64,000 bases of DNA from an uncultured Alphaproteobacteria bacterium (GCA_934248075.1 CAKQKH010000001.1:51771-115770); one strand, 5' to 3'; positions 8,663 to 46,521 are shown, numbered from the stretch's first letter. The notes: a model not told the origin generated them from the letters alone. Made by a program: numbers and translations.

Positions 8663-8679
8663 ATTTGCTGTTTTATCAA

Positions 8680-8709
8680 AAAAAGCTGGCTTTTTGCCAG
8701 CTTTTTTTT
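8680..8709 (+). terminator. Rho-independent terminator after the HTH regulator
   Basis: Stem AGCTGGC (8684-8690) / GCCAGCT (8696-8702), then a T8 run (8702-8709). It lies inside the 5' extension of the track trmB ORF, which argues for the shorter trmB start. Confidence 0.6.
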
Positions 8710-8741
8710 ATTATGTAACAAAAACTAACCTTGAGGATCCC

Positions 8742-13389: not shown

Positions 13390-13484
13390 AACAGACGTCT
13401 TCCTTACTACAACAAAACATAAAAAAAAACAAGTCTAAAAACATTCATCTGAATCCTTCACTTCTGGTTTTTCAAAAAAAAACC

Positions 13485-13513
13485 TTGACTTTCATAGATT
13501 TTATATGTATTAA
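13485..13513 (+). promoter_or_regulatory. Candidate sigma70-type promoter for rpmB
   Basis: TTGACT (13485-13490), a 17-nt spacer, then TATTAA (13508-13513), about 35 nt upstream of the rpmB ATG. Motif match only. Confidence 0.35.
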
Positions 13514-13546
13514 AAGGCAACTAGTTTTGATAAAAGGATTATAAAA

Positions 13547-13834
13547 ATGGCTAAAAAATGTGATATTTCCGGCACCGGCGTACAGAGTGGCAACAACGTC
13601 AGCCACGCCAACAACAAATCTCGTCGTCGTTTTCTGCCGAATTTGCAGGTTGTTTCTCTGTTGAGCGACACCCTTGGTAAAATCTTCAAACTCAAAGTTT
13701 GCTCCAAAACTTTGCGTTCAATCGAACACAACGGCGGTTTGGATTCCTATTTGGAATCTACTTCTAACTCTAAGCTGACAGATGAAGCTAAAAAGATTAA
13801 GAAGTCAATTGCCAAAAAGAAAGCTGCTAAATAA
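13547..13834 (+). CDS. rpmB: 50S ribosomal protein L28
   Basis: MAKKCDISGTGVQSGNNVSHANNKSRRRFLPNLQ is the canonical L28 N-terminus. Confidence 0.92.
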   Translation: MAKKCDISGTGVQSGNNVSHANNKSRRRFLPNLQVVSLLSDTLGKIFKLKVCSKTLRSIEHNGGLDSYLESTSNSKLTDEAKKIKKSIAKKKAAK

Positions 13835-13858
13835 TAATAAAATACCATAAGCTTTTCA

Positions 13859-13886
13859 GCCCCGTCTCAATGACGGGGTTTTCTTT
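13859..13886 (+). terminator. Rho-independent terminator after rpmB
   Basis: Stem CCCCGTC (13859-13865), loop TCAAT, stem GACGGGG (13871-13877), then TTTTCTTT. Confidence 0.6.
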
Positions 13887-15479: not shown

Positions 15480-15704
15480 ATGCCCAATAATTTTCTCAAC
15501 TTGCTTATCTATGTTGTAGCTGCTTCAATCGGCATTGCTGCTCTCATTACTCTGATTGCTCTGGGAGCCACAATTTTTGCGGTTGTTTTTGCTTATGTAT
15601 TTATTCCGTTGTTTATTTTAGCCGGTTTGCGTTGGCTCTGGATCAGATATTATCTTGCCAAACACCCCAAAATTGAGTATTTTAAAGACGATAATAATTT
15701 TTAA
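15480..15704 (+). CDS. Small two-TM membrane protein, hypothetical
   Basis: 74-aa hydrophobic ORF starting 3 nt after the dnaB stop. Confidence 0.4.
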   Translation: MPNNFLNLLIYVVAASIGIAALITLIALGATIFAVVFAYVFIPLFILAGLRWLWIRYYLAKHPKIEYFKDDNNF

Positions 15705-15714
15705 GCCTACGAAT

Positions 15715-16155
15715 ATGACAGCCAAACCATTCTGGAAAACCAAAAAGCCTGAACAATTCACCCCCGAAGAATGGGAATCTGTTTGCATGCACTGCGGACG
15801 TTGTTGTCTGATTAAACTGCAAAATGAAGATGACAACGAAATTTATGAAACCAACGTTGTTTGTCGCTATCATAATTGCAACAATCATCTCTGCACAGAG
15901 TACTCTCGACGCCACGAACTTGTTCCAACCTGCCTAAAGCTAAACCCTAAAAATATTGGCAGTTTAGAGTGGATTCCCGATACTTGTGCCTATTATATTT
16001 TGGCGCGCACCGGAACCCTCCCCGCGTGGCACCCTCTGGTCAGTGGCAAACCTCTTCCAGCTGAGTTTAAAATACCGGCGACGGTTGTAAGCGAACTTTT
16101 GGTACCAGAAGATGAACTTGAAGATCACATCATTGAGGACGAAGATGATGACTGA
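15715..16155 (+). CDS. YcgN-like (UPF0260) Cys-cluster protein, copy 1
   Basis: PFWKTKKPEQFTPEEWESVCMHCGRCCLIKLQNEDDNEIYETNVVCRY...C..Y..R...VP.C follows the YcgN pattern. ATG 15715 is preferred over track start 15655, which overlaps the previous ORF. Confidence 0.7.
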   Translation: MTAKPFWKTKKPEQFTPEEWESVCMHCGRCCLIKLQNEDDNEIYETNVVCRYHNCNNHLCTEYSRRHELVPTCLKLNPKNIGSLEWIPDTCAYYILARTGTLPAWHPLVSGKPLPAEFKIPATVVSELLVPEDELEDHIIEDEDDD

Positions 16156-16648
16156 TGACTGGCTTGACAAGCCCTATGATCCGCAATCGCGTTTTGCCGA
16201 TATCTCAGATGTCGAACCTGAATTTTGGAAAAAGAAAAAACTATCTCAAATGTCCAAACGCGAATGGGAGCTGCTTTGCGACGGTTGCGGCAAGTGTTGT
16301 CTTAATAAACTTGAGATTCGAGGACAAATCAAGTTTACAAACACCGTATGTCGTTTTTTAGATTGCCATAATTGCCTTTGCAAAATTTACAATCATCGTT
16401 TTGAACAAGTGCCTGATTGCCGAGACATCACTCTTTCCGCAGTGAGAGAAAAACCGCGATGGCTGCCCAAAACCTGCGCCTATTGGCTGCTTGACAACGG
16501 CTATGACCTGCCAAACTGGCACCCGCTTATCACTGGCCGCGCCGCTTCTGTGCATGAGGCCGATATGTCGTTGCAAAAACGCCACGTCATCAATGAATCC
16601 GGAGTAAACGACTATGAAGATCACCTTGTTGACTGGCCGGACCTTTGA
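16145..16648 (+). CDS. YcgN-like (UPF0260) Cys-cluster protein, copy 2
   Basis: EFWKKKKLSQMSKREWELLCDGCGKCCLNKLE...FTNTVCRFLD...CKIYNHRFEQVPDC...NWHPLITG. The ATG at 16145 overlaps the stop of copy 1. Confidence 0.7.
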   Translation: MMTDDWLDKPYDPQSRFADISDVEPEFWKKKKLSQMSKREWELLCDGCGKCCLNKLEIRGQIKFTNTVCRFLDCHNCLCKIYNHRFEQVPDCRDITLSAVREKPRWLPKTCAYWLLDNGYDLPNWHPLITGRAASVHEADMSLQKRHVINESGVNDYEDHLVDWPDL

Positions 16649-19369: not shown

Positions 19370-21439
19370 ATGAAAGAATTCAATATGGCAGAAGAAACTA
19401 CCGCTCCTCAAACTGAAAACTCTGCTTCGGCAACCGTTGCCGCGGCTGAGACAGTCGCGCCTGAGTCACAGGCCGTTGCTGACGAATCCACAAGCATTTG
19501 TCTAGTTAAAGAGCGCTTTGAAATTGATTATAATTCCCCATTGCCCGAACTTGACAGTAACGGAGCCAAAGCTTTTGCCGTAAAAGACAAGATCAAACCC
19601 GAGCGAGAACTTTTTGCGCTTTTGTGCGACAACAATTTTCCGCCGCGTTTGTCAATGTTGCCATATCTCAAAGCTCTTGATCACCCCAATTTGCTCAAAT
19701 TGGTAGAATACAGCGTGGTAGATTATATTCCTCAAAAGACCATGAATATGGCGCTCATATACAATCGCCCCACTGGCCCCAAAGCATCTGACAAAATTTC
19801 CACCGAAAAAATGCCTTTTGAAAAATTCAAGTCTTTGGTATTGTCATTGGCTTCCGGCTGTGAAGCTCTCAAAAGCTACAATTTAACCCATCGCGCCATT
19901 CGCCTTAACAACATATTTTTCAAAGATGCCGAATGTTCTGAACTGGTTTTAGGTGATTGTGCCGCCTCTTTTCCGGCCTTATATCAGCCATCGGCCTATG
20001 AAACCATCGAGAGCATGCTTTGTTTGCCTCAGGGTCGCGGTCAAGGTAGCAGCGGCGATGATATTTATGCTTGCGGCGTGGCCTTGCTGGGTCTGGCTTT
20101 ACAACATGACATTTCTCCGGAAATGTCCACGCCTGAACTTCTGCAGCTCAAGCTTAAAAAAAGCTCTATTTCTGCTTTGACCGGAGGCGACAAACTGCTG
20201 AGTCAATTTGTGCCGGTGCTTAAAGGTATGCTTGATGACTCTGCCGAATCTCGTTGGAACAGCACTCAGATTTACAATTATCTTGACGGCAAGTCCTCAA
20301 GTTTTAACAACGAATCCGGTGAAAAATCCATGCGAGCGCTTACCATTGGCGGTGAAAAATATTATACCGCCAAATCCACCGCTCTGGCTTTGCTGGAAAA
20401 TCAAGAAAATGCCCTCACCGTCGTGCACAACGGCAAATTACTGGAATGGATTAAAAACGGCTTGGAGAATGAAAAACTTTATAATAAAATAGACAAGCTG
20501 ATCCAAAACGACAAAGAAAACCCCAACAACCGCTTGCTGATACCGCAGATATGCGTGTATCTTGATTACAGCCTGCCGGTCAAGTGCGGTGATATTTATG
20601 TTTTTCCGAGTGGTTTGCCCAAGGCCGTATTCCATTATCTCAAAACCAACCAATCTTTAGAAGGTTTTTATCAGGTTCTCTCCGGAGATTTAATCAAAAT
20701 TTGGTATCAAGAACAGCCTTTTCTGCACGCCCCCGCAAACAGCAATGAGTTTCGGGTCTATTTGGCGCGCAATGATTATGGCTACGGCATAGATCGTATT
20801 ATGTATGATTTTGATGATGATTTGCCCTGCACCAGCCCGCTTATCGGCCGCGAGTTTGTAAACTCCCCCTCCAAGCTTTTGCGCGCGCTTGACACCAACT
20901 ATCCTAACAACAAAAACGCAAAACCTTACGACAAAAACATTATCGCTTATTTGCGCTGCAAAATGGGCAAAAAAATTGACGGTATTTTAACCGATCTCAA
21001 CGCCAATCAAGATCTTTTGCAAGCTGCGTCCATTATGCGACTATATGCCAATATCCAAAACAAAAGCGGTCCGGTTCAACTATTTAACCTCACCCAGTGG
21101 CTGATGAAAACCGCTCAACCGATTATTCAGGGCTATCATAATCTCAAGTATCGCAAGTTTTTAGAACGCGAGCTGGTCAAGATATCCAAGACCGGCAAGA
21201 TTATTGGCTTATACGAGATTTTGGATAATGATGAAGCCAAACGCAAGGATAGAGAAGAGTATTCCGAAGCCCTCAAAAAAATAAATATCCTAACCGCCGA
21301 ACGCAATCGCATCTTATCCGGCAACGACAAAGTTGATGAAGAATCCAAAGATCTGGCTATCAAATTCGGATCAATTTTAGCTGTTTTAACCATGCTGAGT
21401 TCATTTATTTTCAGCACTATTTATTGGGCATTAAAATGA
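19370..21439 (+). CDS. Protein-kinase-like (probably catalytically dead) domain protein with a large unknown C-terminal region and a C-terminal TM anchor
   Basis: Kinase-fold landmarks are AFAVKDK (VAIK-like), HPNLLKL, LTHRAIRLNNIFF (HRD loop with D->A), LGDCAASF in place of DFG, DIYACGVALLGL and SRWNSTQIYNYL. There is no Gly-rich loop. The last ~25 aa, ILAVLTMLSSFIFSTIYWAL, are hydrophobic. ATG 19385 is an alternative start. Confidence 0.5.
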   Translation: MKEFNMAEETTAPQTENSASATVAAAETVAPESQAVADESTSICLVKERFEIDYNSPLPELDSNGAKAFAVKDKIKPERELFALLCDNNFPPRLSMLPYLKALDHPNLLKLVEYSVVDYIPQKTMNMALIYNRPTGPKASDKISTEKMPFEKFKSLVLSLASGCEALKSYNLTHRAIRLNNIFFKDAECSELVLGDCAASFPALYQPSAYETIESMLCLPQGRGQGSSGDDIYACGVALLGLALQHDISPEMSTPELLQLKLKKSSISALTGGDKLLSQFVPVLKGMLDDSAESRWNSTQIYNYLDGKSSSFNNESGEKSMRALTIGGEKYYTAKSTALALLENQENALTVVHNGKLLEWIKNGLENEKLYNKIDKLIQNDKENPNNRLLIPQICVYLDYSLPVKCGDIYVFPSGLPKAVFHYLKTNQSLEGFYQVLSGDLIKIWYQEQPFLHAPANSNEFRVYLARNDYGYGIDRIMYDFDDDLPCTSPLIGREFVNSPSKLLRALDTNYPNNKNAKPYDKNIIAYLRCKMGKKIDGILTDLNANQDLLQAASIMRLYANIQNKSGPVQLFNLTQWLMKTAQPIIQGYHNLKYRKFLERELVKISKTGKIIGLYEILDNDEAKRKDREEYSEALKKINILTAERNRILSGNDKVDEESKDLAIKFGSILAVLTMLSSFIFSTIYWALK

Positions 21440-21912
21440 TTAAACCATTACCCCGCAAAACATCAAAAAAACCGGCCTTAAAATTTAATTTATTACAAAA
21501 GTTTCTAATTCTTTTGGTTTTTGCCATTTTGGCTCTCACCGCGCTTCCGGTGGTTGTTATTTTGCTAATCGGTTTGTTGCCGACCATTACAGTTTTGCTC
21601 ACGGATTCCAAAAATTCCGGCAAATTAACCATTGTCGGCTGTTTTAATCTATCCGGTATTTTCATCTGTCTGACTGACATTTTCAATCAATATGCCGCCA
21701 ACCACAGTGTTTCCATTTTAAGCAACATTTTTAATATTGTGATTATGCTTGGCGCCGCCGCGTTGGGTATGATTTTATACTATGAACTTCCCAACTTATT
21801 TATATTCATTTTCAAAAGCTCGGCTCAACGCCGTTTGCGCGGTATTGATGCCAAGCTTGAGAAAATTGCCGCCGACTGGGGGCGCGACAGTATCGGCGAA
21901 ACCGAACAATAA
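21436..21912 (+). CDS. Polytopic membrane protein, hypothetical
   Basis: About 158 aa and about 4 TM segments. Its ATG forms an ATGA overlap with the upstream stop (21436-21439). Confidence 0.45.
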   Translation: MIKPLPRKTSKKPALKFNLLQKFLILLVFAILALTALPVVVILLIGLLPTITVLLTDSKNSGKLTIVGCFNLSGIFICLTDIFNQYAANHSVSILSNIFNIVIMLGAAALGMILYYELPNLFIFIFKSSAQRRLRGIDAKLEKIAADWGRDSIGETEQ

Positions 21913-23953: not shown

Positions 23954-24259
23954 TTGCAAGGAAGATTAACCGTGGACAAACTCAAATTAATCAAGCTTAT
24001 TGTTGTTGTTTTAACCTTTTTATTGGTTTTTGGCACCCTTGCGGCCCTAGGAACAGTCTATCGCAAAGTGTCATCGTCCGGCAACATCGCTATTTCCAAC
24101 CTCAACCTACACCAGCCTGACGGCAGCAGTATCGAAGATTTCAAGCTTCAAGATCAAAAATTATATCTCTTAATAAAATATGGCGGACAACCTGATCGCA
24201 TCATTATTATAGACTCTGCCGAACCGACAGCCAAACCGGCAGTTATCCGTATTCAATAG
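23954..24259 (+). CDS. Small single-pass membrane protein, hypothetical (operon gene 1)
   Basis: TM segment LIKLIVVVLTFLLVFGTLAALGTV followed by a ~60-aa domain. The start may be GTG 23972, which is preceded by AAGGAAG. Confidence 0.4.
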   Translation: MQGRLTVDKLKLIKLIVVVLTFLLVFGTLAALGTVYRKVSSSGNIAISNLNLHQPDGSSIEDFKLQDQKLYLLIKYGGQPDRIIIIDSAEPTAKPAVIRIQ

Positions 24260-24269
24260 GAGAAATACC

Positions 24270-25118
24270 ATGACAGACACCACTTCTCAAGATAACTTTG
24301 ACGCTCTGCTAGACGAATTTATTTCCAAGCAATTATCTGATACTGAAGATACGGTTGAAGAACTGCACGAGCTAAAAGAAACCAATCGTCCGCAGCCTTC
24401 TTACCCTGGTGAAGAAGCCGAAACTATCAACAACCTCTATCCGGAAGAGCGCCGCTTGTATGATGCCTACCATAACTTCCGTATTGCCATAACCAATTTG
24501 GCGCAGGCCGCAGAGGTAGAAGTTCCGGAATTTCAGTTCACCGCCATGCAAATATACCCGCGTTTTCGCCCCAACCGCGCCAACAAACTTAATCAAGATA
24601 TTTTCAACTCCTGGTCAGCCATGGTTACCGCTCAGCCGGTCAGACTTGCTTCTTTACCGGAAAACCCCTCTGACGAGCAGATTCTATCCTTCGCTGAAAA
24701 AACTACCGACGAAAACCTACAAAACGCGCTTATCTCATACGTTGAGATTCTAATTGAGCTTGACAGTTGTGAAATTGCCTACAATTTACGCAAAGCCAAG
24801 GCCGAAAAACGCCGGATAGAAAAAGAAATTTTTGAAGAAAATCAACATCGCAAAGAGCGCATTCAAAAATACATTGAAGCCATCAGAGCTCAAAATTTCC
24901 CCATTGATGCCGAGCGTTTGGTCAACAATTACTTCAAAACCGCCCGCAAAGATCCCGACGGCGCCCAAAAGATTTTAGAGACCAACCCTGCAACCTATGC
25001 TCCCATTCAAGTTGATAAAATTCCGCCCCGATTCTTTGGCCTGATTAAAACCAAACCGGAAGACGGTATCAGAGTAAACAAAGAAATTGGCAAATTTCTC
25101 AAGGATCTCAAAGTCTGA
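24270..25118 (+). CDS. Acidic cytoplasmic hypothetical protein (operon gene 2)
   Basis: 282-aa ORF with AGGAG 8 nt upstream, 10 nt after gene 1. No recognisable domain. Confidence 0.45.
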   Translation: MTDTTSQDNFDALLDEFISKQLSDTEDTVEELHELKETNRPQPSYPGEEAETINNLYPEERRLYDAYHNFRIAITNLAQAAEVEVPEFQFTAMQIYPRFRPNRANKLNQDIFNSWSAMVTAQPVRLASLPENPSDEQILSFAEKTTDENLQNALISYVEILIELDSCEIAYNLRKAKAEKRRIEKEIFEENQHRKERIQKYIEAIRAQNFPIDAERLVNNYFKTARKDPDGAQKILETNPATYAPIQVDKIPPRFFGLIKTKPEDGIRVNKEIGKFLKDLKV

Positions 25119-25208
25119 ACGATTTAAACATATACAAAATTCTAGACAAAACACGATTTTATGTTATCATAATAGATAACCAGACCCTTTAAAGAAAGGA
25201 ACCGGACA

Positions 25209-26852
25209 ATGACAGCAAGACAAGATGCTCAAAAAAGTGCCAACTCAGGCCGCAAAGAAGCTGAAGATACCAGAAAAGACCCAAACCGCGGAAAAGTTAC
25301 CGGTAATACTACCGGCACCGCGCCAACCCCTGTCAAAACTACGCCTCCAAACGATAATACCACCAAGGTGGACGAAAACCAGTCTCCAGATCAGAAAACC
25401 GATTCCGACAAAACCACTAAGGTGAGTGAAAACCCGTCTCCAGATCCGAAAACCACTGAAGTGAGTGATCTTGATTCTCTGACACACCTTCAGCTTCCTG
25501 ATCAGAACAAACCAACCGACAAGAACACCGCTGAAATTACTCCAACTAAAGACCTTGATGAAATCAATGACGAGGATGATGACAAATTTGATATTCAACA
25601 AGGCGATTTTATTGACTTTTTAATGAAAGACGTGGTTTTGGCCTTTGCGGCCTATTGCGGCAAAAAAGTTACAACACCTTTTGGTATTGCTGCTTACCAG
25701 CTTGGATCCAAGATGTATCATGGAGCCAAAGATCATCTCTGGGATCCGGCTTGGGCCGAAGTAGAAGATGGCTGGAATAAATTCAAGAACAATGTCGTTG
25801 AAGCCTGCCGTAGTGTTGGCGAGTATGAAATCAAGCACGAATTCAAAAATGATGATGAAACCTCCAAATCTGGCAACGACGCAATAAAACAACATAACAA
25901 AACCATCAAATATTACAATCAAAACGTTTTTGGCAATGATGACAGCAAGATGCCGGATTCTTCAATATTTGACCATTTTGCTGAAGCCGTTATGAATGGA
26001 GATATTTCTGATACCCTCCCTGTTAAAGAGGGTCAGGTTTACTTTTGTAAGGATATTGCCAACGACCAACAACAACCTCGTTCAGACCTTTATTGGTTTG
26101 ACCCCAAAAACAAATTAAACATTCCTATCGGTTCGCGTATGATGCAGCAGGCAATTGCTTTAGCTGTTGAGATGACAAAACAGGCAAACGAAAAAATAAC
26201 CGATGAAAACAAAAAGAAAGAAATAAAAGCCAAGTTAGTCAAAAACTTTTCCAAAGTTGCTAAATCTTTTGCCGAGATAGAAGCTCCTGAGAATATTTTT
26301 GTTCGAAATATGATCACGGCTCGCCAGTTGCATGACTGTGCTCTCACTAATAAAAATCCGGATAAGGACACACTCGATCTCTATACCGCTGAAGCTCGAA
26401 AAATTTATTTAGCTGAATACATCAAGATTCAAAAGGGCGAAAGTAAATATAAAAACCTCAAACAACTTCTTGATGCCAGCTACAAAGCCGTAGAAGCTGC
26501 ACATAAAAACATTAGAGAAGGCCGCTATGTAGAAAAAGGAGTTGATCCGCAAACCATCAAGAATGAACCTCTTGACCGGTTACTGCAACAAAACGCCGAA
26601 AAAATTCGCACTACCGATGCTAAAACTCTGCGCCAAGAATTTATGGATACCATCATGAACGACAAAAAAAATAAAAACGCTATGGAAAACATCAATAATG
26701 TTATATCTGCTCTGGAAAATGATAAGCAAAAGGTTGATGACCGGCGCAAAAGATGCGATGATATCAAAAACAAAAAAACAAATGGCAAAGATAAAGATAA
26801 TAATAAAAGCGATAATACAAAACCAACACAATCTCGTGGTAACTCAAGGTAG
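25209..26852 (+). CDS. Large hypothetical protein with disordered repeat-containing N-terminus (operon gene 3)
   Basis: 547-aa ORF with AAGGAA upstream. The N-terminal ~130 aa are T/P/K/D/N-rich with an 18-aa repeat. The rest is a K/E-rich globular or helical region with no motif I recognise. Confidence 0.5.
   Translation: MTARQDAQKSANSGRKEAEDTRKDPNRGKVTGNTTGTAPTPVKTTPPNDNTTKVDENQSPDQKTDSDKTTKVSENPSPDPKTTEVSDLDSLTHLQLPDQNKPTDKNTAEITPTKDLDEINDEDDDKFDIQQGDFIDFLMKDVVLAFAAYCGKKVTTPFGIAAYQLGSKMYHGAKDHLWDPAWAEVEDGWNKFKNNVVEACRSVGEYEIKHEFKNDDETSKSGNDAIKQHNKTIKYYNQNVFGNDDSKMPDSSIFDHFAEAVMNGDISDTLPVKEGQVYFCKDIANDQQQPRSDLYWFDPKNKLNIPIGSRMMQQAIALAVEMTKQANEKITDENKKKEIKAKLVKNFSKVAKSFAEIEAPENIFVRNMITARQLHDCALTNKNPDKDTLDLYTAEARKIYLAEYIKIQKGESKYKNLKQLLDASYKAVEAAHKNIREGRYVEKGVDPQTIKNEPLDRLLQQNAEKIRTTDAKTLRQEFMDTIMNDKKNKNAMENINNVISALENDKQKVDDRRKRCDDIKNKKTNGKDKDNNKSDNTKPTQSRGNSR
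25359..25468 (+). repeat. Imperfect in-frame tandem repeat (54-nt period, 2 copies plus a partial third)
   Basis: ACCACCAAGGTGGACGAAAACCAGTCTCCAGATCAGAAAACC (25359-25400) against ACCACTAAGGTGAGTGAAAACCCGTCTCCAGATCCGAAAACC (25413-25454), about 36/42 identical. A partial ACCACTGAAGTGAGTGA follows. The repeats encode TTKVDENQSPDQKT / TTKVSENPSPDPKT / TEVSD. Confidence 0.8.
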
Positions 26853-26857
26853 TAAAC

Positions 26858-27343
26858 ATGAAAAAACTGCTGAAAATTTTTCGCACTGCTCTGGTTGGTC
26901 TGCTTTGGACTTATTTATTCCTGATTATGTCTAATTATCTGATGTATCAACTTTGGAGCTTTAACTTCATGTCAGCTCACAGTTGGCAAACCATGTCCGG
27001 CTATTGGAACTCAGGCGGCGTTATCAACACCGCGCCGGATTACATCTTTTTACTAATGTTGTTTTCTCTGCCGATTATGTGGCTCGTTGGCTGGATTCTT
27101 TTGCTCAAGATAGAATACTTAAGCATTCTGCTTTATCCGCTTAATGTTTATAATCGCCACATCGTCAACAAATATGGCCATAATTCTTCTCGTGTAATTC
27201 TTCGTAACATCAAATCCAGTCAAAAGATTATTGAAGAAATAAAAGAACAATTAGAATCTATAAAGCCGGCCAAGAGCAAAGAAGTCAACAATATCCGACA
27301 GGAAGTGCAAAAAAAATTGGAAGAGCTGAATAAAAAGAATTAA
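26858..27343 (+). CDS. Trp-rich membrane protein, hypothetical (operon gene 4)
   Basis: 161 aa with about 3 TM segments and a K/E-rich C-terminal helix. It starts 5 nt after the gene 3 stop. Its N-terminal module is paralogous to the next gene. Confidence 0.5.
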   Translation: MKKLLKIFRTALVGLLWTYLFLIMSNYLMYQLWSFNFMSAHSWQTMSGYWNSGGVINTAPDYIFLLMLFSLPIMWLVGWILLLKIEYLSILLYPLNVYNRHIVNKYGHNSSRVILRNIKSSQKIIEEIKEQLESIKPAKSKEVNNIRQEVQKKLEELNKKN

Positions 27344-27431
27344 CCACCGCAACTATTACAAAATAAAACAGTTGTTAACTAATTCTGTGCTACACTTTTC
27401 CAAACTGAGTAATTTTTGGAGATACCCTCTT

Positions 27432-28694
27432 TTGAAACCTTTATTGATACTGATGCGCATTGTTTTTGTTGGTATTTTCTGGAGCCTTTTGTTTCTGGAA
27501 GGTATTCGCGTCATTATGCTCACAAACTGGCATTTTGACATCTTGCGCTTGGATCATTGGTTATATGCTTGGAATCTCTGGCTCGCCGGTTGGGTTATTG
27601 ATGACCCCAAAGAATGGGCCTTTGTCCTGATTATTCTGACCTTTATTCCGGTTTGGCTCACCGGTTGGACGGCTCTGAGCATGATTCATTGGGGCAATTT
27701 GTTGGCAGACATTCTTGAACTTCCGTTAAAAATATTCAAAAAACTATTTGAAAATCAGGTGCAAAAAATTGCCGCCTCTGCCAGCGTTAAGGTTGTCAAA
27801 AAGAAAAAATCTTATAAAGAAATCCGCCCTCGCAGCATTCGCCCGCCACTTGAAGACAGCGCCTATGCCTTGCCGGCGGATCGCAAAGCCGCTTTGTCCG
27901 GAATCCCCGCCAAACCCAAGGCCAAATCACCACAAGCTGACAACAAGCCTGTTGCCACCGGACCAGTTGAGTTTAATCACTCTCTGTTTCAATTTGATGA
28001 TGATGACAACACAGATTTTGACTTTGACCTTTTTGATGATAGCAAAGCCCAAAAAGAATCCGCCTCGGCTCCGGCTCAGGCTGAAGAACCACAACCGGCC
28101 AAATCAGACAAATCTGACAATCGCACCTCCAATCGTGGCAAGCCAGACCGTCAAAACCATCAACGCGGCGGCGCTCAGACGTCATCTCGCGGCAGCAGCA
28201 ATTCAACCTTTGATATTCTCAAACAAAAAGGTTATGAGATTATTACCGGCGCCACTATCAAAAACACCCTTATTGACTTCATTGGTGTTTCCGGCTCCAC
28301 CATTTGCCTGTGTCTCAATGACAAAGAACCCGGAGACTGGCTTGCTGATGAAGAGCGTTTTAATGATGAAGAACCTTTGTGGTTTTCTGAGAGTTCCCAC
28401 CGTATTTCTCCGGTTCGCAAAATAGATGTTGCCCGCAACATTCTTACTGAAAAATTGAGCGAAGCCAACCTTCCGTATAAAATTGAAGCTTTCGTAATTG
28501 AACAAATCGGCAATATCATTAATGCTGAAGATATGTTTGACATTTGGGATAATATGAATATTAACGTAACTCGTATTGATCGCGGCACCCCCAAAGAAAT
28601 TAAGCTTTTTGCCAAAACTTTGGAAGACGCCGACGGCAAAGTTGATAAAGCTGATTTTGAAAAAATCAGAAAATTAATTCGTGGAATTGCATAA
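27432..28694 (+). CDS. Membrane protein with paralogous Trp-rich N-terminal module, disordered linker and unknown C-terminal globular domain (operon gene 5)
   Basis: The track starts this ORF at TTG 27372. I prefer in-frame TTG 27432 because GGAGA sits 9 nt upstream. That start also gives MKPLLILMRIVFVGIFWSLLFL, which is colinear with gene 4's MKKLLKIFRTALVGLLWTYLFL. Confidence 0.5.
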   Translation: MKPLLILMRIVFVGIFWSLLFLEGIRVIMLTNWHFDILRLDHWLYAWNLWLAGWVIDDPKEWAFVLIILTFIPVWLTGWTALSMIHWGNLLADILELPLKIFKKLFENQVQKIAASASVKVVKKKKSYKEIRPRSIRPPLEDSAYALPADRKAALSGIPAKPKAKSPQADNKPVATGPVEFNHSLFQFDDDDNTDFDFDLFDDSKAQKESASAPAQAEEPQPAKSDKSDNRTSNRGKPDRQNHQRGGAQTSSRGSSNSTFDILKQKGYEIITGATIKNTLIDFIGVSGSTICLCLNDKEPGDWLADEERFNDEEPLWFSESSHRISPVRKIDVARNILTEKLSEANLPYKIEAFVIEQIGNIINAEDMFDIWDNMNINVTRIDRGTPKEIKLFAKTLEDADGKVDKADFEKIRKLIRGIA

Positions 28695-28709
28695 GCTCAA
28701 GAGGAACAA

Positions 28710-30941
28710 ATGGCTGTTGAAAAAAAAGGAGAAGAATGGGAAGAATATAATAGCGCCGTCCGCTGGATGGTGATTACGGTTATAATTTCTACCCTGATTA
28801 CAATTTTTTTGGCTTTGGTCGCCATGCCGCTTGGTTATCTTATCGGCACTGGTATTTCCAAAGACAGTATCAATGATGTCTCTCGCTTTTTTAATCTGGT
28901 ATTTATGAAACCGGGATATCTGTATTCTCGTTATTGGAATTGGTTTAAACAGCTACTCAACTATCACGGTGATTTTTCTTTTAGCTTATGGATACCGATT
29001 CTTCCTTTCATCAGTTTTCCTACCGGACTAATCACCGGACTAATCACCAATCCCTACCGTTTTCAGTCAAATATTCATGGCTCGGCTCGCTTAGCCACGG
29101 AAAAAGACATCAACAAAATGGCTCTGCTTGGGTTTGATGGCTTTTGTCAGGTTGTCGGCAAATTCAACAATAAGCTTCTTTTGCTCAAGGAAACCCTTTC
29201 CACTCTGTGCTGCGCTCCTCCGGGTACTGGTAAAACTGCCGGCGTGGTTATTCCAACCATTTTTCACTCGCCCACTCTTAGCATTATCGTTAATGACCCT
29301 AAACCAGAGTTGTGTTTCCAAACCTCCGGCGCTCGTGCCAAAGTAGGGCCTGTGTTCATCATCAACTGGGGTATGGAAGATAACCCTGCTGAAGGTATTT
29401 ATTATCCAAGCTGGAACCCGCTTTCACCTGGGGCTGTTCCGGCTCCTGGTCCATCGCGCGATATGTATATCGATTCCATGTGTAAAGTATTGGTGGAAGA
29501 CCCCAAAGGCGGCGCTGACCCTCACTGGTCAACTACCGGTCGCGCGGCGCTTACCGGATTTTTGCACTTTATTGTTTCCAAATGCGAAAAAGCTCGCGCC
29601 AATGACTACTTTATCGGACGCGTCTATGAGGGCAAACTCGATGATGAAGATCGCAAGGTTCTTGAGGGTTATTATCTGGAGATGAATGATCCGTCTTCTT
29701 CCCGCGCTTTGCAAAATTTGCGTCAGGGAACCCTTAATATAGATAATTACCTGCCAATTGGAACTTGGGCGCTATTACCGGAGAAATGGATTGGCCACGA
29801 AGCTTGTATTGCCATGATTTTGGAATGGATTACCGAGGCTCAAATCAAACAATCACAAGATATTAAACGCCGTATGGATGAAGGCGATCAAATGGCTGCC
29901 ATGGCCGACCCCATGCGTGATTTGCTGGAGGAAGCCATTGAAGAGGCTCGCAAATTCGGTTACGCCCAACGCTGTATTGTTGAGTTGAGCCAGCTTAGCG
30001 CCATGCCTGATAAAGAGCGCGGCTCCGTAATGTCCACCGCCTTTGCCGGCATTGGCATTTTCAAAAACTCGGCCGTGGTTGCCCGCACCAGTTTCAGCGA
30101 CTTATCGTTTAAGGATTTACGCGGTCTAAAAGACCCCATTACCGGAGAGTTCAAGCCTATTTCGGTTTATCTTTCAGTCAACCAGGTAGATGCCCGCGCT
30201 TTGAGTGTTATTTCCGGCACCTTTATTGACCTTATGTCATCATACCTTATTGCTAACCCGCCCAAATTTCATAACCCCACTGACGGCGTTATGGGACCAT
30301 ATTCCTGCTTGTTCGTGCTGGACGAGTTTCCAACCATGCCCAAACTAAAAGCGGTTATTGACGGTCCGGCGGTAGGACGTGGCCAAAAAGTGTCTTATCT
30401 GCTTATCGGCCAAGACTTAGGCCAAATTTCCGGTAAATATGGTAAAGATGACCTCGAAACCGTTATTTCTACCACCGCATGCAAAGTTATTCTGTCACAA
30501 AACAACGAACAAACCGCCCAGCGTTTTTCTAAAATGATTGGTAACAAAACCGTTCAAACCACCTCTTTTTCCAAAAATGAAGGCGGTTTTAGCAAAGGCA
30601 CCAACCCATTTGCCAAAAACGTCAGCTACCAGTTGCAAGGTGTTTCGGTTATCTCAACCACTCAGCTTTTGAGCTTGCCAATGCTCAAACAAGTTGTGCT
30701 TATGCAAAGTTACATTGATCGCCCGATTATGGCCGATTCCCCCCGTTGGTATCTTGATAAAAAGATGAAGGCTTTGCGCAACCTGCCCACCGCGCCAAAT
30801 GTTCCTGACTGGATTGTTGCTCAGCGTGAGGATATCAATGATGATATGCTGGCCAAGCTTGGAATTGACTATGATCCTAATGAAGATTTTGATGATTCTG
30901 AGTTTGAAGATGAAGAAACAGAGGATTCTGCTGAATCCTAA
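28710..30941 (+). CDS. virD4: Type IV secretion coupling protein, VirD4/TraG family
   Basis: It has two N-terminal TM segments, the HGSARLATEKDI entry motif and Walker A CCAPPGTGKTAGVVIPT. Other matches are NDPKPEL, HWSTTGRAALTGFL, Walker B CLFVLDEFPTMPKL, LLIGQDLGQISGKYGKDDLETVISTTACKVILSQNNEQTAQRFS and an acidic C-terminal tail. Confidence 0.82.
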   Translation: MAVEKKGEEWEEYNSAVRWMVITVIISTLITIFLALVAMPLGYLIGTGISKDSINDVSRFFNLVFMKPGYLYSRYWNWFKQLLNYHGDFSFSLWIPILPFISFPTGLITGLITNPYRFQSNIHGSARLATEKDINKMALLGFDGFCQVVGKFNNKLLLLKETLSTLCCAPPGTGKTAGVVIPTIFHSPTLSIIVNDPKPELCFQTSGARAKVGPVFIINWGMEDNPAEGIYYPSWNPLSPGAVPAPGPSRDMYIDSMCKVLVEDPKGGADPHWSTTGRAALTGFLHFIVSKCEKARANDYFIGRVYEGKLDDEDRKVLEGYYLEMNDPSSSRALQNLRQGTLNIDNYLPIGTWALLPEKWIGHEACIAMILEWITEAQIKQSQDIKRRMDEGDQMAAMADPMRDLLEEAIEEARKFGYAQRCIVELSQLSAMPDKERGSVMSTAFAGIGIFKNSAVVARTSFSDLSFKDLRGLKDPITGEFKPISVYLSVNQVDARALSVISGTFIDLMSSYLIANPPKFHNPTDGVMGPYSCLFVLDEFPTMPKLKAVIDGPAVGRGQKVSYLLIGQDLGQISGKYGKDDLETVISTTACKVILSQNNEQTAQRFSKMIGNKTVQTTSFSKNEGGFSKGTNPFAKNVSYQLQGVSVISTTQLLSLPMLKQVVLMQSYIDRPIMADSPRWYLDKKMKALRNLPTAPNVPDWIVAQREDINDDMLAKLGIDYDPNEDFDDSEFEDEETEDSAES

Positions 30942-30943
30942 CA

Positions 30944-31549
30944 ATGAGGAAACCGTTCATGCTGGAATGGTCAAAACCAACGCCAAAATCGGATATTGAC
31001 ACTCCGCATAATTCTTTGCGCGAGCATAGCGCTGATATTATCTCTCCGAAAACACCGTCGGCTCCGTCAGCATCTTTGACCTCAATCATCTACCCTGATG
31101 AAACCCCCTCTCCTCAGCAAATGAAAAATTTGTTGTCTGACTGCATAAACAACTTTGCTCTTCACAATATTGAACTCAAAGAATGCTCATATCAGCCGCA
31201 AACTTGGGCTGAAATGTACAAGAATTACATTGAATATACTCGTTTGCGGCAAAACTTTTTAAGATTTATCAGCCTAACCAAAAGTGACGAATGTAAATTA
31301 ATTGGGTTTGATGATGAGGATATGGAGCTTCTCAAAAATAAGCAATCTCCCGAAAACTACAATACTCACCTAAAAATACCTTTTGATTTTGGCGGTAAGC
31401 TAAATCTTGATAATATCTGTCTTATCAAAACTAACCCTCTTCATGACCAAATTCACCAAATGATAGAAATGCAAATTGGCTGTGGTTTTCTCAAGCAACA
31501 TAAAATAATATATATTCCATGGTTTGACGGGAGCCTTTACCATGAATAA
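30944..31549 (+). CDS. Putative HNH (beta-beta-alpha-Me) nuclease toxin, colicin/pyocin DNase-like C-terminal motif
   Basis: YNTHLKIPFDFGGKLNLDNICLIKTNPLHDQIH aligns by eye with the colicin E9 DNase motif as I recall it, [33 protein letters not shown]. The H..GG..DNI..P..H..IH spacing agrees within 1 residue. It starts 2 nt after the virD4 stop. Confidence 0.5.
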   Translation: MRKPFMLEWSKPTPKSDIDTPHNSLREHSADIISPKTPSAPSASLTSIIYPDETPSPQQMKNLLSDCINNFALHNIELKECSYQPQTWAEMYKNYIEYTRLRQNFLRFISLTKSDECKLIGFDDEDMELLKNKQSPENYNTHLKIPFDFGGKLNLDNICLIKTNPLHDQIHQMIEMQIGCGFLKQHKIIYIPWFDGSLYHE

Positions 31550-31988
31550 GGAACTTATTGACAAACTTTGCAATCAACCTGCTTGTGTCTCTTTTCCGCC
31601 GGCTGTAAAAGCTGATATCGTCAGAGCCTTAGAGCAACTTAAAGAACTAAAATTTGCCGCTCCCACGCCCGATTATATGGCTTTTTTGAGCTATTTGGAT
31701 GGCTACTATTATGACGGATTAGAACTATTTGGCATTAGAACCCATTTGCGGATTTCCAAACAATACACTTTTTCCAATTTGGTTGAGCAGAACCGCAATT
31801 TTTGCCAATACACTTTTTTCATTGGCAAACTAATTATCGGACGCCTGTCAGAACATTTTATAATTTATGATGAACGCAACAAACTATACGCCATTATAGA
31901 TCGTGTAAACCTATGCCCAATGGTTGAATTTTCTGATTTTGACGATTTGTTATCAACTCTATTGCAATTTTGCAGTGTTACCGCCTAA
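31542..31988 (+). CDS. SUKH/SMI1-KNR4-like putative immunity protein
   Basis: VRALEQLKELKFAAPTPDYMAFLSYLDGYYYDGLELFGI, then FIIYDERNKLYAIID and EFSDFDDLL, follow the SUKH-1 pattern (L..lP.dY..FL...nG...g...fgi ... vy.id ... sF.d.l). ATG 31542 overlaps the toxin ORF by 8 nt. Confidence 0.45.
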   Translation: MNKELIDKLCNQPACVSFPPAVKADIVRALEQLKELKFAAPTPDYMAFLSYLDGYYYDGLELFGIRTHLRISKQYTFSNLVEQNRNFCQYTFFIGKLIIGRLSEHFIIYDERNKLYAIIDRVNLCPMVEFSDFDDLLSTLLQFCSVTA

Positions 31989-34559: not shown

Positions 34560-34982
34560 TCAAGATGTCAGTTTGGCCAACTCGACTTCCACTCTCAACT
34601 CAATCTCAGCCATAATTTCTTGCAATTTTGGATCAGAAGACTCCGCCTGATGCTCTTTTACAAATCTCGATATTTCTATCAATTTATCTTTTGATATATA
34701 TCCAAGCAGCAAAGCGTCGCGTATTTCCTCCAATTTTTCAATCAACGAAAAACCTCTTTTCACCAATTTTTTGCGAATTTCTTGTTCTTCTTCTCTCCCA
34801 ACAGCCTGCGCCGCAAAAATAGCGTCTGCCACAGCAATTCCTGATGTTCCGCCCACTTGTTGCGGCCGACTTGCCATAGTCTCATTCAAATAAGCGGCAA
34901 AGCTTTCTCCACCCGCAGATCTATGCGTGCTTTTTACATTATTTAAATCGTTGGTTTTATTAACATCATTAACCTTAATCAA
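34560..34982 (-). CDS. fliX: FliX-like class II flagellar assembly regulator
   Basis: 140 aa. AIFAAQAV..EEEQEIRKKLVKRGFSLIEKLEEIRDALLLG and the C-terminal SDPKLQEIMAEIELRVEVELAKL resemble alphaproteobacterial FliX as I recall it. Assignment from memory only. Confidence 0.45.
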   Translation of the reverse strand: MIKVNDVNKTNDLNNVKSTHRSAGGESFAAYLNETMASRPQQVGGTSGIAVADAIFAAQAVGREEEQEIRKKLVKRGFSLIEKLEEIRDALLLGYISKDKLIEISRFVKEHQAESSDPKLQEIMAEIELRVEVELAKLTS

Positions 34983-34992
34983 CCATTTTCCC

Positions 34993-35556
34993 CTATTGAA
35001 ACGTCCAGGTTATAACATTTTTATCGCCCGACTTACAGCTGTCGGTTGCTTTTTTAATATTCATCGGCAAATTACTATCGCCGGCGGCATCTGTTCCTGC
35101 CGGTAAAGTAAATAGTTTATCATTAATCTTGAGTTGATATAAGTCGCTGTTTTGCCCATTACTCCAGTTAATTTGACTAAGATTTATACAACTGCGGACC
35201 GGTAAATCCTTAAATGTTATGTCAAAATAATTTTTACCTAAAGTTGATTGTTTAATTTCAACTTCTCCATTTTGTCTATGCATTAACTTATTGCCCGCAA
35301 TCATTTGCGACGGCACCAAACCTTCTTTTTTAATTTTTTCAACTTCAGTAGGAATAGAGGCATAATCACCCTCAAGCCTGTACCGAGAAACAACATTTCT
35401 CTGCACTTCCTGAATTTCGTTCTCTATCATATTTTGCTTAAAAGCCTCAAACATTCCGCCAATAAGTTTCACGGCGGCAACCGTCATCACCGTAACCACT
35501 GATATTACGGCTATTGCCTCCATCATTGTTGCGCCTTGTTGATTACATTTTAGCAT
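34993..35556 (-). CDS. Type IV pilin-like / pseudopilin-like protein
   Basis: Prepilin-type N-terminus QQG/ATMMEAIAVISVVTVMTVAAV, with Gly at -1, Glu at +5 and a hydrophobic helix. There are two Cys in the C-terminal third (RSC...DSC). Confidence 0.5.
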   Translation of the reverse strand: MLKCNQQGATMMEAIAVISVVTVMTVAAVKLIGGMFEAFKQNMIENEIQEVQRNVVSRYRLEGDYASIPTEVEKIKKEGLVPSQMIAGNKLMHRQNGEVEIKQSTLGKNYFDITFKDLPVRSCINLSQINWSNGQNSDLYQLKINDKLFTLPAGTDAAGDSNLPMNIKKATDSCKSGDKNVITWTFQ

Positions 35557-40434: not shown

Positions 40435-40463
40435 TTGACAGATTTCAAAAATAATCATATAAA
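40435..40463 (+). promoter_or_regulatory. Candidate sigma70-type promoter for rho
   Basis: TTGACA (40435-40440), a 17-nt spacer, then TATAAA (40458-40463), about 47 nt upstream of the rho ATG. Confidence 0.4.
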
Positions 40464-40509
40464 AAGCATACAACATCGTTCCTTTAATATATTTCCCTAC
40501 AAGGTTTAC

Positions 40510-41763
40510 ATGAATTTAAAAGATTTGAAACAGAAGTCTCCTACTGAGCTGTTGACTCAGGCAGAAGATTTGGGCATTGAAGACGCATCTTCCATGCGTG
40601 TTCAAGATTTAATGTTTGCCATTCTAAAAAAAGTGGCTGGTGATGATCAAACCATTTACGGTGAAGGCACTATTGAGGTTATGCAAGACGGTTTTGGTTT
40701 TTTGCGTTCTGCTCAATCCAATTATCTTGCCGGCCCTGATGATATTTACGTTTCTCCGGCTCAGGTTAAAAAATTCGGACTTCGTACCGGAGACACTGTT
40801 GAAGGTGAAATCCGCGCTCCCAAAGATAACGAGCGTTATTTTGCACTCACTAAAGTCAATCGGATTAATTTTGAGGATCCTGAAAAATCCAAGTTGCGGG
40901 TAAATTTTGATAACCTTACCCCTCTATACCCAACCGAGAAGCTTAATTTTGACATAATTTGTGGTGAAAAAGATTACACTACCCGCGTTATTGACCTAAT
41001 TTCTCCACAAGGCAAAGGACAGCGCGGGCTGATTGTGGCTCCTCCCCGCACCGGCAAGACCGTAATGCTGCAAAATATAGCTCACGCCATTGCCACCAAT
41101 CACCCTGAATGTTATCTTATGGTGTTGTTGATTGACGAGCGCCCTGAAGAAGTTACCGATATGACACGTTCAGTAAAAGGAGAGGTTATTTCTTCTACTT
41201 TTGATGAGCCTGCAAGCCGTCACGTTCAGGTTGCCGAGATGGTGATTGAAAAAGCCAAACGCTTGGTCGAGACTAAAAAAGATGTTGTTATTTTATTGGA
41301 TTCTATTACTCGCTTAGGTCGTGCTTACAATACGGTTATTCCTTCTTCAGGCAAGGTATTGACCGGTGGTGTTGACGCCAACGCTTTACAACGTCCCAAA
41401 CGTCTGCTCGGTGCTGCTCGCAACGTTGAAGAAGGCGGTTCTTTAACTATTATTGCCACAGCTCTAATTGATACCGGATCTCGTATGGACGAAGTTATTT
41501 TTGAGGAGTTTAAAGGTACCGGTAACTCAGAAATTATTCTTGACCGCAAGTTGACCGACAAACGCTTATTCCCGACTATTGATATCACCCGTTCCGGAAC
41601 TCGCAAAGAAGAATTGTTAGTTGATCGGGAACGCCTGACCAAAATGTGGGTTTTGCGTCGTGTCTTAATGCAAATGGGCATGACTGACGGCATGGAGTTC
41701 TTGCTGGATAAGTTGCGTGTTAGCAAAGATAATAATGATTTTTTTGCTAATATGAATTCTTAA
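40510..41763 (+). CDS. rho: Transcription termination factor Rho
   Basis: [21 protein letters not shown], Walker [18 protein letters not shown] and [11 protein letters not shown]. The track start TTG 40435 coincides with the -35 hexamer, so ATG 40510 is used. Confidence 0.92.
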
Positions 41764-42465: not shown

Positions 42466-42644
42466 TTTCAGACTTTCTTCAATAAAAAAAAGGTTTCCAT
42501 AAATGAGCGTACAATCAATGATACGAAATTTTACAATAAACTTATTAAGAAAGACTAAAAAACCGCTCCAGAGTCAAAAAAACGCCCTTTTTGTGCTTGC
42601 AACCATTTTTGAATAATTTTATAAGATGTTATAGAGAGGTTACT

Positions 42645-45898: not shown

Positions 45899-46521
45899 TT
45901 CGTTATTATCCCACTCTTCAACAAGCTCAGAAAATTTGGCAAGAGGGCTTGGATTATCGTACTCAGACAACCAATTATGTTAATCGCGAAGATTATATTT
46001 TTCATACGCGCGGAGTGGCTGAGGCTGCAAAAATAATCGCTGCTCATACCAAAGATATGGATCCTGAAAAAGCTTATATATTAGGGCTGCTTCATGATTA
46101 TGGTAAAAAATATGACGAGAAAGCATGTGGACTTTTTCACGGACAAGTAGGCTTTGATGAAATGAATAATATGGGATATTATGATGTGGCAAAAATTTGT
46201 CTTACACATTCATTTCCTCGTAAAGATTTTGAAGAAATTCATTACACATCATATCTTCCAGAATGGATTCAATGGGCAAAACATGAATTATCTAAAGTTG
46301 ATTATGATGATTATGATCGTCTGATACAACTATGTGATATGTTTTTTGAAGCTACTCAAAAAGTCGATTTTGAAACAAGATTTAAAAAAATTATTGAGCG
46401 TTACAATTTATCTTCTGACGTTATAAACGTGTTAAGGGAAGATGCTGAGCGTAATCTAAAATATTTTGAAAACAAAACCGGCTGCAACATTTATGATTTG
46501 TTAAATATAAAACATTTATAA
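45895..46521 (+). CDS. HD-domain phosphohydrolase (YqeK-like), copy 1
   Basis: [14 protein letters not shown]...[15 protein letters not shown]...FHG..G...LTHSF...LIQLCD gives the H..HD..H..H..D metal ligand series. An ATGA overlap links it to the mnmG stop. Confidence 0.65.

Follow-up and report, generated by a model that had tools for sequence, protein, structure and literature searches.

The stretch of DNA analysed here (64,000 nucleotides (nt) from an uncultured Alphaproteobacteria bacterium, GCA_934248075.1 CAKQKH010000001.1:51771-115770; hereafter, the window) contains an operon of eight genes, o1 to o8, built around a chromosomal type IV coupling protein (T4CP), o6, and ending with a DNase toxin gene, o7, and its immunity gene, o8. 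In our assessment there is an even chance that the operon encodes an inner-membrane platform for substrate recruitment, which would feed a VirB-type channel encoded elsewhere and so export the DNase. Known families account for the T4CP, the toxin domain and the immunity protein; o2, o3, o4 and o5 belong to none. Literature searches on the clade (RF32 / CAG-239) in connection with type IV secretion systems (T4SSs), and on orphan T4CPs, found nothing relevant. In the literature searched, a core chromosomal T4CP operon in gut Alphaproteobacteria appears not to have been described. The same appears to hold for a cassette of the type used by type VI and type VII secretion systems (T6SS, T7SS) that is joined to a T4CP operon by a new leader, and for a wider clade of orphan T4CPs with o5-type or pentapeptide-repeat partners.

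The VirD4/TraG-family T4CP named in the original prediction agrees well with the Pfam analysis of o6, in which three T4CP domains scored above their gathering cut-offs: PF02534 (2e-55, 188.9 bits, cut-off 20.1), PF12696 (2e-22, 80 bits, cut-off 22) and PF10412 (1.5e-16, 60.8 bits, cut-off 20.5). The N-terminus contains two hydrophobic segments (residues 20-38 and 95-113), and the protein ends in an acidic tail. All 78 orthologues have the Walker A motif PPGTGKT, and the Walker B motif was found, under the strict pattern hhhhDEFP, in 64 of the 78. Judged from its sequence, o6 is an intact ATPase that has been inherited vertically. It does not reach the cut-off of any T4CP family curated in NCBIfam (VirD4, IncP TraG, Ti TraG, F TraD and CD1115), the best scores being 127 bits for CD1115 (cut-off 250) and 124 bits for VirD4 (cut-off 728), and the same is true of the distant orphan T4CPs and plasmid relatives described below. 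A phmmer search of o6 against PDB sequences gave nothing at E <= 0.001.

A scan for o6 with one genome per GTDB species returned 186 relatives, of which the best 80, being 76-96% identical to the window copy, were used for the locus comparisons. Their hosts are uncultured metagenome-assembled genomes (MAGs) labelled "Alphaproteobacteria bacterium" or "proteobacterium", CAG:495 included, from human, primate, ruminant, rabbit and other guts. A setting in the Holosporales or Rickettsiales, which had been envisaged beforehand, did not emerge: the close relatives are all uncultured gut or rumen "Alphaproteobacteria bacterium" MAGs. It can be observed that the gene order o1-o2-[o3 slot]-o4-o5-o6, next to rluD, is kept in every locus with enough sequence (about 70 species), and an arrangement shared by about 70 species-level genomes is not due to chance. 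The eight-gene operon originally proposed therefore has an invariant part, namely the six genes o1-o6, and a facultative part, o7 and o8, which occur in 20 of 72 informative species loci and never one without the other. Median identity to the window copy is 82% for o6, compared with 77% for rpoH (sigma-32), 66% for rluD, 56% for rng and 89% for dksA, and o6 is conserved above rpoH in 59 of 66 loci. The corresponding medians are 46% for o1 (69 loci), 50% for o2, 42% for o7 and 40% for o8; o4 was found in 78 loci. The extreme conservation of o6, together with its intact motifs, argues for an active machine maintained by selection.

The nature of the o7/o8 pair was established by profile searches and by homology at the level of the pair to toxin cassettes of the T7SS and T6SS, in accordance with the HNH motif and the SUKH-like protein recognised earlier. 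Residues 68-165 of o7 align with the C-terminal part of an LXG (T7SS) toxin from B. subtilis (31% identity, E = 1e-13), which is encoded in an SPbeta-like region between yokF and bsrG, where the next gene is annotated as a YrhA family protein. Residues 96-194 share 34% identity (tblastn E = 2e-4) with the C-terminus of an E. coli HNH toxin whose N-terminus is Hcp (PF05638, 2e-11) and which is followed by an o8-like gene. Among PDB sequences, the o7 profile matched nothing but the HNH motif in the DNase of pyocin AP41 (E = 0.069), and residues H137, N152, H162 and H166 are invariant in 17 orthologues. Protein o8 matches the NCBIfam YrhA family NF038335 (1.6e-16, 60.5 bits against a 55-bit cut-off) and resembles the immunity genes downstream of the LXG toxin in Bacillus (E = 5e-6) and of the Hcp toxin in E. 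coli (E = 1e-7), the former encoding a protein that matches the SMI1_KNR4/SUKH Pfam families; its profile gave only weak, motif-level matches among PDB sequences. LXG toxins of this group act as DNases, deplete chromosomal DNA and mediate competition (PMC8321402), and Hcp-ET1 is an HNH DNase delivered by the T6SS (PMC6099711). As far as sequence comparison can tell, o7/o8 is a member of this known cassette of HNH-DNase toxin and YrhA-SUKH immunity protein. The existence of a cognate immunity protein in the cytoplasm implies a nuclease that acts beyond the control of the producing cell.

The pair resembles the LXG and Hcp cassettes (the SPbeta-region LXG toxin in the yokI-yokJ position of B. 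subtilis, and a Hcp-HNH fusion of the Hcp-ET type in E. coli) in its toxin domain, its immunity protein, the order of toxin before immunity gene and their tight coupling. It differs from them in that o7 is without either trafficking domain and is encoded directly after a T4CP. Where the other bacteria have the LXG or Hcp domain, o7 has a leader that begins with a conserved MWEWS and is about 65 residues long, and in none of the 17 orthologues was a trafficking domain (LXG, Hcp, Rhs/PAAR, CdiA or the like), or any other family, matched in Pfam. The protein has neither a signal peptide nor a transmembrane (TM) segment, implying that it needs a dedicated exporter.

Linkage between the pair and the T4CP is close. 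Where present, the pair directly follows o6 in 19 of 20 loci, and the o6-o7-o8 adjacency holds despite wholly different downstream genes in loci L037, L040, L042 and L065; in 16 loci, o6 and yacG are immediate neighbours. The distant full-length relatives of o6 were obtained by searching 50%-identity representatives exhaustively, and they provided a further case, locus L082. Its T4CP is 56% identical to o6, its MiaB just 50% identical to that of the window, and a rough neighbour-joining tree places the T4CP beside the window clade as its sister (bootstrap 87%). The T4CP gene is immediately preceded by a homologue of o5 (hmmsearch 5.8e-48), as in the window clade, and immediately followed by homologues of o7 (1.1e-21) and o8 (2.3e-28); o1-o4 are absent from the locus. 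The recurrence of o5-T4CP-o7-o8 in so distant a locus indicates that this four-gene set is ancestral and its linkage ancient; o2-o4 are clade-specific additions, and the toxin pair has been lost repeatedly. From this linkage we infer that o7 is exported by way of the T4CP. The L082 set is bordered by a gene for a 92-residue RHH_4 protein (8489-8767) before the o5 homologue and by an uncharacterised open reading frame (ORF) of 147 codons (13437-13880) after the o8 homologue. In several other species, genes for Cys-rich secreted proteins whose N-termini resemble signal peptides (clusters c23, c45 and c19) recur close to the 3' end of the operon, namely in L031 (12655-15012), L060, L063, L058, L069, L073 and L076; in L031 two of them sit between o6 and o7.

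Four membrane proteins are encoded by the operon, and none of the accessory proteins was identified as a known T4SS or conjugation protein by Pfam, NCBIfam or structure searches, in agreement with the different accessory parts originally suggested. The earlier description has to be amended for o1, which has a single hydrophobic segment (residues 9-27) and probably falls in DUF6476 (PF20082). This family was matched by 20 of 20 o1 orthologues, with a best E of 1.4e-9, the window copy itself reaching 19.7 bits against a 24-bit cut-off. DUF6476 is distributed more broadly than this operon, and the specificity of o1 to the system is therefore uncertain. The AlphaFold2 model of o2, built from 37 sequences, is confident and all-alpha (predicted local distance difference test 88.5, predicted template-modelling score 0.67) and found no match by Foldseek in the PDB (best E = 1.2) or BFVD (best E = 0.13). 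Likewise, the o2 sequence found none in Pfam, NCBIfam, PADLOC, PDB profiles or, by tblastn, 72,556 plasmids, and its 548 homologues are all unnamed or "hypothetical". Across the operon, PADLOC gave no defence-model match for o1, o2 and o4-o8, and for o3 one at E = 0.56 only.

The o3 slot is always filled, by an ORF of 430-755 codons, with a mean column identity of merely 15%. A lone motif is conserved, the amphipathic GDIIxYMxKDWxLAGANWA. No TM segment is predicted; the C-terminus is hydrophilic and net positive, with a mean of +2.8 over the last 25 residues and G-x-R as the usual ending. The disordered repeat N-terminus described earlier persists in spite of the variability, and in the window it corresponds to a real repeat, consisting of two 49-nt copies, 54 nt apart, at 25352-25454. 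In one related locus (L007, 2772-8224) the o2-o3 segment occurs twice in tandem (282 and 533 residues, an ORF of 134 codons, then again 282 and 533 residues), which could reflect either a genuine duplication or an assembly error.

The kinship of the o4 and o5 membrane modules was borne out by BLASTP of o4 against residues 1-109 of o5 (29% identity, E = 2e-13). Protein o4 has two hydrophobic segments and four invariant Trp residues, W17, W33, W43 and W50. The linker of o5 contains a basic motif, KKKKSYKEIRP, and an acidic one, FDFDLFDD. Within the alpha/beta domain that follows, a 34-residue stretch, DKEPGDWLADEERFNDEEPLWFSESSHRISPVRK, shows one variable position among 33 sequences that are otherwise about 60% identical, as would be expected of an interface with an equally conserved partner. 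The Pfam family most commonly found for o5 is NERD, matched by 16 of 33 orthologues at a best E of 0.0022 and always short of the cut-off. In Foldseek comparisons of the AlphaFold2 model with the PDB, the best matches were the Nt.BspD6I nickase, R2 endonuclease and Card1 at E of about 0.01-0.2, the nickase match being weak (E = 0.013, template-modelling scores <0.2). A profile search of PDB sequences gave low-complexity noise only, and tblastn against the 72,556 plasmids no match. These convergent but sub-threshold signals weakly suggest a NERD/restriction-endonuclease-like fold for the C-terminal domain. Residues D282, D297, K298 and E299 are invariant, and the residue before D297 varies (N, S, T, I or L); catalytic competence of the domain appears doubtful.

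As the original prediction stated, no gene for a T4SS channel, relaxase, integrase or transposase is present in the 64 kb; four small window ORFs have no Pfam match, and the remaining ORFs are housekeeping genes or belong to unrelated Pfam families. The term orphan accordingly holds for the T4CP only within the window and within +/-10 kb in its relatives. The closest annotated plasmid relatives of o6 (32-37% identity over 66-82% of o6) all close virB8-virB9-virB10-virB11-virD4 operons on alphaproteobacterial megaplasmids (Sphingosinicella, Erythrobacter, Microvirga, Thalassospira). Such kin imply that the o6 family descends from channel-coupled VirD4 proteins, and the simplest expectation is a VirB channel elsewhere in the genome. 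The megaplasmid T4CPs are encoded directly after channel and ATPase genes, on plasmids with replication and repair cargo, whereas o6 is chromosomal, close to the origin and away from such genes. Other distant relatives of o6 (35-53% identity) are single T4CP genes among housekeeping genes; one (L081) is found in a MAG labelled Rickettsiales, and another (L092) is followed by an uncharacterised protein of 393 residues. In four independent lineages, L083, L084/85, L086 and L087, a pentapeptide-repeat protein of 345-441 residues is encoded immediately upstream of an orphan T4CP that is 35-43% identical to o6. The two of these proteins that were translated, from L083 and L084, have a strongly basic C-terminus, and the pentapeptide-repeat protein may represent a second type of T4CP partner or substrate.

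In the proposed mechanism, o6 would form a hexameric VirD4-type ATPase in the inner membrane, flanked by the two-TM paralogues o4 and o5. Two lineage-specific adaptors would contact the platform, namely the soluble o2 and the cytoplasmic part of o5, which is NERD-like and contains the invariant acidic loop. Cytoplasmic cargo would then be taken up, one such cargo being the o7 DNase, which would be kept harmless in the producer by o8, and the hypervariable, positively tailed o3 is a second candidate. The cargo would be handed to a channel across the envelope, most probably a T4SS of the VirB type with its genes elsewhere in the genome, and the DNase would finally be delivered into neighbouring bacteria. 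Bactericidal T4SSs are known to recruit their effectors via VirD4, and one of these effectors is a DNase (PMC8740702, PMC11253643). Several observations weigh against this mechanism. No VirB or Trb gene is present in the window, within +/-10 kb of the 80 related loci or in seven distant orphan loci. The last 25 residues of o7 have a net charge of about +1, with no C-terminal XVIPCD or Arg-rich T4SS signal, and the C-terminus is occupied by the HNH domain itself; for XVIPCD, no Pfam family was matched at E <= 1 in o7 or its orthologues, assuming that the Pfam copy used holds an XVIPCD model. Furthermore, o7/o8 are missing in 52 of 72 species in which the rest of the operon is intact, so that the toxin cannot be the main reason for the conservation of the operon. 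A dispensable toxin pair beside an extremely conserved o6 implies that the platform must have other, more important cargo, for which o3 is the obvious candidate.

Among known machines, a close comparison is offered by the X-T4SS of Xanthomonas citri, Stenotrophomonas maltophilia and Lysobacter, with its X-Tfe pairs including the DNase TfdA. As here, a chromosomal T4CP of the VirD4 family is present, together with a cytoplasmic nuclease toxin that has no Sec signal and a cognate immunity gene adjacent to it; in the X-T4SS, toxins are selected by VirD4, which acts as their receptor (PMC8740702, PMC11253643). The X-T4SS is found in Xanthomonadales, Burkholderiales and Neisseriales, its virD4 lies beside virB1-11, and its effectors end in an XVIPCD of about 120 residues. 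In contrast, the present operon belongs to a gut alphaproteobacterium, has no virB genes nearby and includes four or five extra, uncharacterised partner proteins, and its toxin has a short N-terminal leader and no C-terminal signal detectable with Pfam. A likeness to Dot/Icm (DotL, DotM, DotJ) can also be observed, in that a membrane protein with a cytoplasmic domain precedes the T4CP and a shorter paralogue has the membrane module only. DotJ is a paralogue of the membrane region of DotM. Homology of o5 and o4 to DotM and DotJ was considered and rejected: neither Pfam, NCBIfam nor PDB profiles gave such a match, and DotM was absent from the top 50 Foldseek hits in the PDB. Moreover, o6 is VirD4-like and not DotL-like, and homologues of IcmS, IcmW and DotN are missing here, leaving a functional analogy only.

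The T4CP together with o4 and o5, and perhaps o1-o3, might instead constitute a minimal translocon or membrane complex that works without a VirB T4SS and moves o7 or o3 across the inner membrane, or acts on another substrate. Such an arrangement would fit the orphan state of every member of the wider clade that was examined (the window clade, L081, L082, L092 and the four pentapeptide-paired T4CPs), which group apart from the virB-linked plasmid T4CPs in the rough neighbour-joining tree. It would also fit the operon's own supply of membrane proteins and partners that belong to no known T4SS family. We regard it as rather unlikely. Scattered T4SS genes are normal in some Alphaproteobacteria, for example the Rickettsiales, and no product of the operon resembles an outer-membrane or periplasm-spanning component; furthermore, a T4CP alone is not known to translocate across the envelope (established T4SS knowledge, summarised in PMC8740702). 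It seems similarly improbable that the whole chromosomal orphan-T4CP clade is channel-free and represents a new machine for secretion or processing that is complete with its own membrane partners (o4 and o5, plus o1-o3), has become a core function in uncultured Alphaproteobacteria of the gut and has co-opted the DNase cassette via the new leader.

A role centred on DNA, with the T4CP as a DNA translocase and the nuclease-type proteins o5 (NERD-like and membrane-tethered) and o7 (regulated by o8) as its partners, is distinctly unlikely; DNA release, DNA uptake and the interception or degradation of incoming DNA would be possible functions. T4CPs lie within the FtsK/TrwB superfamily of DNA pumps, o6 matches the "DNA-binding domain" family PF10412, weak signals of a restriction-endonuclease fold were obtained for o5, and the catalytic HNH motif of o7 is intact. 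The acidic-aromatic motifs of the o5 linker and the o6 tail also resemble tails of the single-stranded DNA-binding protein type. The window nevertheless contains no relaxase, and a repeat search returned no inverted repeat resembling an origin of transfer beyond chance. The homology of o7/o8 is specifically to interbacterial toxin/immunity cassettes, and nuclease activity of o5 is made doubtful by the variation at the first position of its ExK-like motif. Defence systems, moreover, are usually patchy and not conserved beyond sigma-32; an anti-phage system was rejected as a candidate, the operon being without a PADLOC match. There is also little probability that o7/o8 are an independent selfish or orphan cassette placed beside an unrelated T4CP operon, which might, for example, export effectors such as o3 directed at the host or at protists. 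The loss of the pair from most loci without effect on o1-o6, the movement of this cassette type among T6SS, T7SS and other contexts, and the fast evolution of o7 and o8 would all be understandable on that assumption. It accounts poorly for the position directly after o6 in at least two different downstream contexts, for the recurrence of the pair with o5 in distant L082, for the conserved MWEWS leader in place of a trafficking domain, and for the short o6-o7 junction with no plus-strand terminator-like site in it. That the operon is the remnant of a decayed conjugative or mobilisable element is effectively refuted. A T4CP without a channel is indeed a feature of mobilisable elements, and the nearest annotated relatives are on plasmids. 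Against this stand the same position and order next to rluD/rpoH in about 70 species, very strong purifying selection above the level of sigma-32 with intact ATPase motifs, and a window with no relaxase, integrase or other mobile-element gene, no repeat boundary and no compositional break.

Work on coupling proteins normally concerns plasmid conjugation machines or pathogen T4SSs. Here, a T4CP is a core gene conserved beyond the heat-shock sigma factor, and the clade that carries it comprises at least 186 species-level genomes of uncultured Alphaproteobacteria from gut and rumen. If o6 feeds a T4SS, bactericidal T4SSs would extend to the mammalian gut microbiota and to the Alphaproteobacteria, and one toxin/immunity cassette could be re-addressed to T4SS, T6SS or T7SS by a swap of its N-terminal module. 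The MWEWS leader would then be a candidate for a new T4CP targeting signal, and o2, o4 and o5 are candidates for new T4CP adaptor proteins. If no channel exists, a new kind of machine built around a T4CP would be implied.

All eight plus-strand ORFs originally predicted are present, and an independent gene call on a 163.8-kb public contig of the same organism (ERZ28614456) agrees with them (Table 1). The mechanical ORF of o5 begins at 27372; its homologues begin 20 codons later, so 27432 was used, and the start of o7 was set by its orthologues, which begin at MWEWS. From o1 to o8 the junctions measure 10, 90, 5, 88, 15 and 17 nt, followed by an 8-nt overlap of o7 and o8. These sizes are as first reported with the exception of the o6-o7 junction, where the 2 nt given earlier came from an upstream ATG.

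Table 1. Genes of the operon in the window, with product sizes from the independent gene call, and pentapeptide-repeat genes upstream of distant orphan T4CPs (coordinates within each locus).
Feature	Location	Coordinates	Strand	Product (aa)	Description
o1	window	23972-24259	+	95	single-pass membrane protein, probably DUF6476
o2	window	24270-25118	+	282	acidic (isoelectric point 5.0) soluble all-alpha protein, new family, candidate adaptor
o3	window	25209-26852	+	547	hypervariable hydrophilic protein, disordered repeat N-terminus, candidate substrate
o4	window	26858-27343	+	161	two-TM protein, short paralogue of the o5 membrane module
o5	window	27432-28694	+	420	two-TM Trp-rich module, disordered linker, cytoplasmic alpha/beta domain (weakly NERD/PD-(D/E)xK type)
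o6	window	28710-30941	+	743	VirD4/TraG-family coupling protein (T4CP)
o7	window	30959-31549	+	196	leader of about 65 residues, then colicin/pyocin-type HNH DNase toxin domain
o8	window	31542-31988	+	148	YrhA-family (SUKH-type) immunity protein
pentapeptide-repeat gene	L083	8772-10001			
pentapeptide-repeat gene	L084	8958-9995			
pentapeptide-repeat gene	L086	7216-8376			
pentapeptide-repeat gene	L087	8672-9997			

The housekeeping flanks are as originally described: the operon is preceded by rpoH and rluD and followed by yacG, rng, maf and dksA, every one of them a minus-strand gene. In character the window is ordinary chromosomal DNA close to the origin, with mnmE-mnmG-rsmG-parA-parB at 42.6-50.5 kb, and the composition of the operon does not break with its surroundings. 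The minimum of the cumulative GC skew lies at about 42 kb, between rho (40435-41763) and mnmE (42591-43982), indicating that the replication origin is probably within the window, about 10 kb from the operon. In a promoter and terminator scan of the region, site counts were within chance. The best sigma-70-like site is located at 25143-25170 (+), in the o2-o3 spacer (TAGACA, 16 nt, TATCAT, with an extended TG; 10/12 positions), and could be an internal promoter for o3-o8.

Further genes of the window were recorded outside the operon. A kinase-like protein of 689 residues (19370-21439, +; Pkinase 2e-5, below cut-off; PADLOC MkoA 9e-11) and a membrane protein of 162 residues (21424-21912, +) form a pair that is syntenic in about 48 related loci. 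The pair was not counted as part of the operon, rpoH and rluD intervening on the other strand. A type IVb pilin-like protein of 187 residues is encoded at 34993-35556 (-) (PilS N-terminal 4.9e-9, Bundlin 9e-7), standing alone between fliX (34560-34982) and an OmpA-like beta-barrel gene with no pilus assembly genes nearby, and its synteny is kept in 24 related loci (cluster c4). Tandem paralogues were observed at 15655-16155 and 16112-16648, encoding two CxxCxxCC (PF03692) proteins, and at 45895-46521 and 46545-47165, between mnmG and rsmG, encoding similar HD-domain proteins, the HD domain being confirmed in the first.

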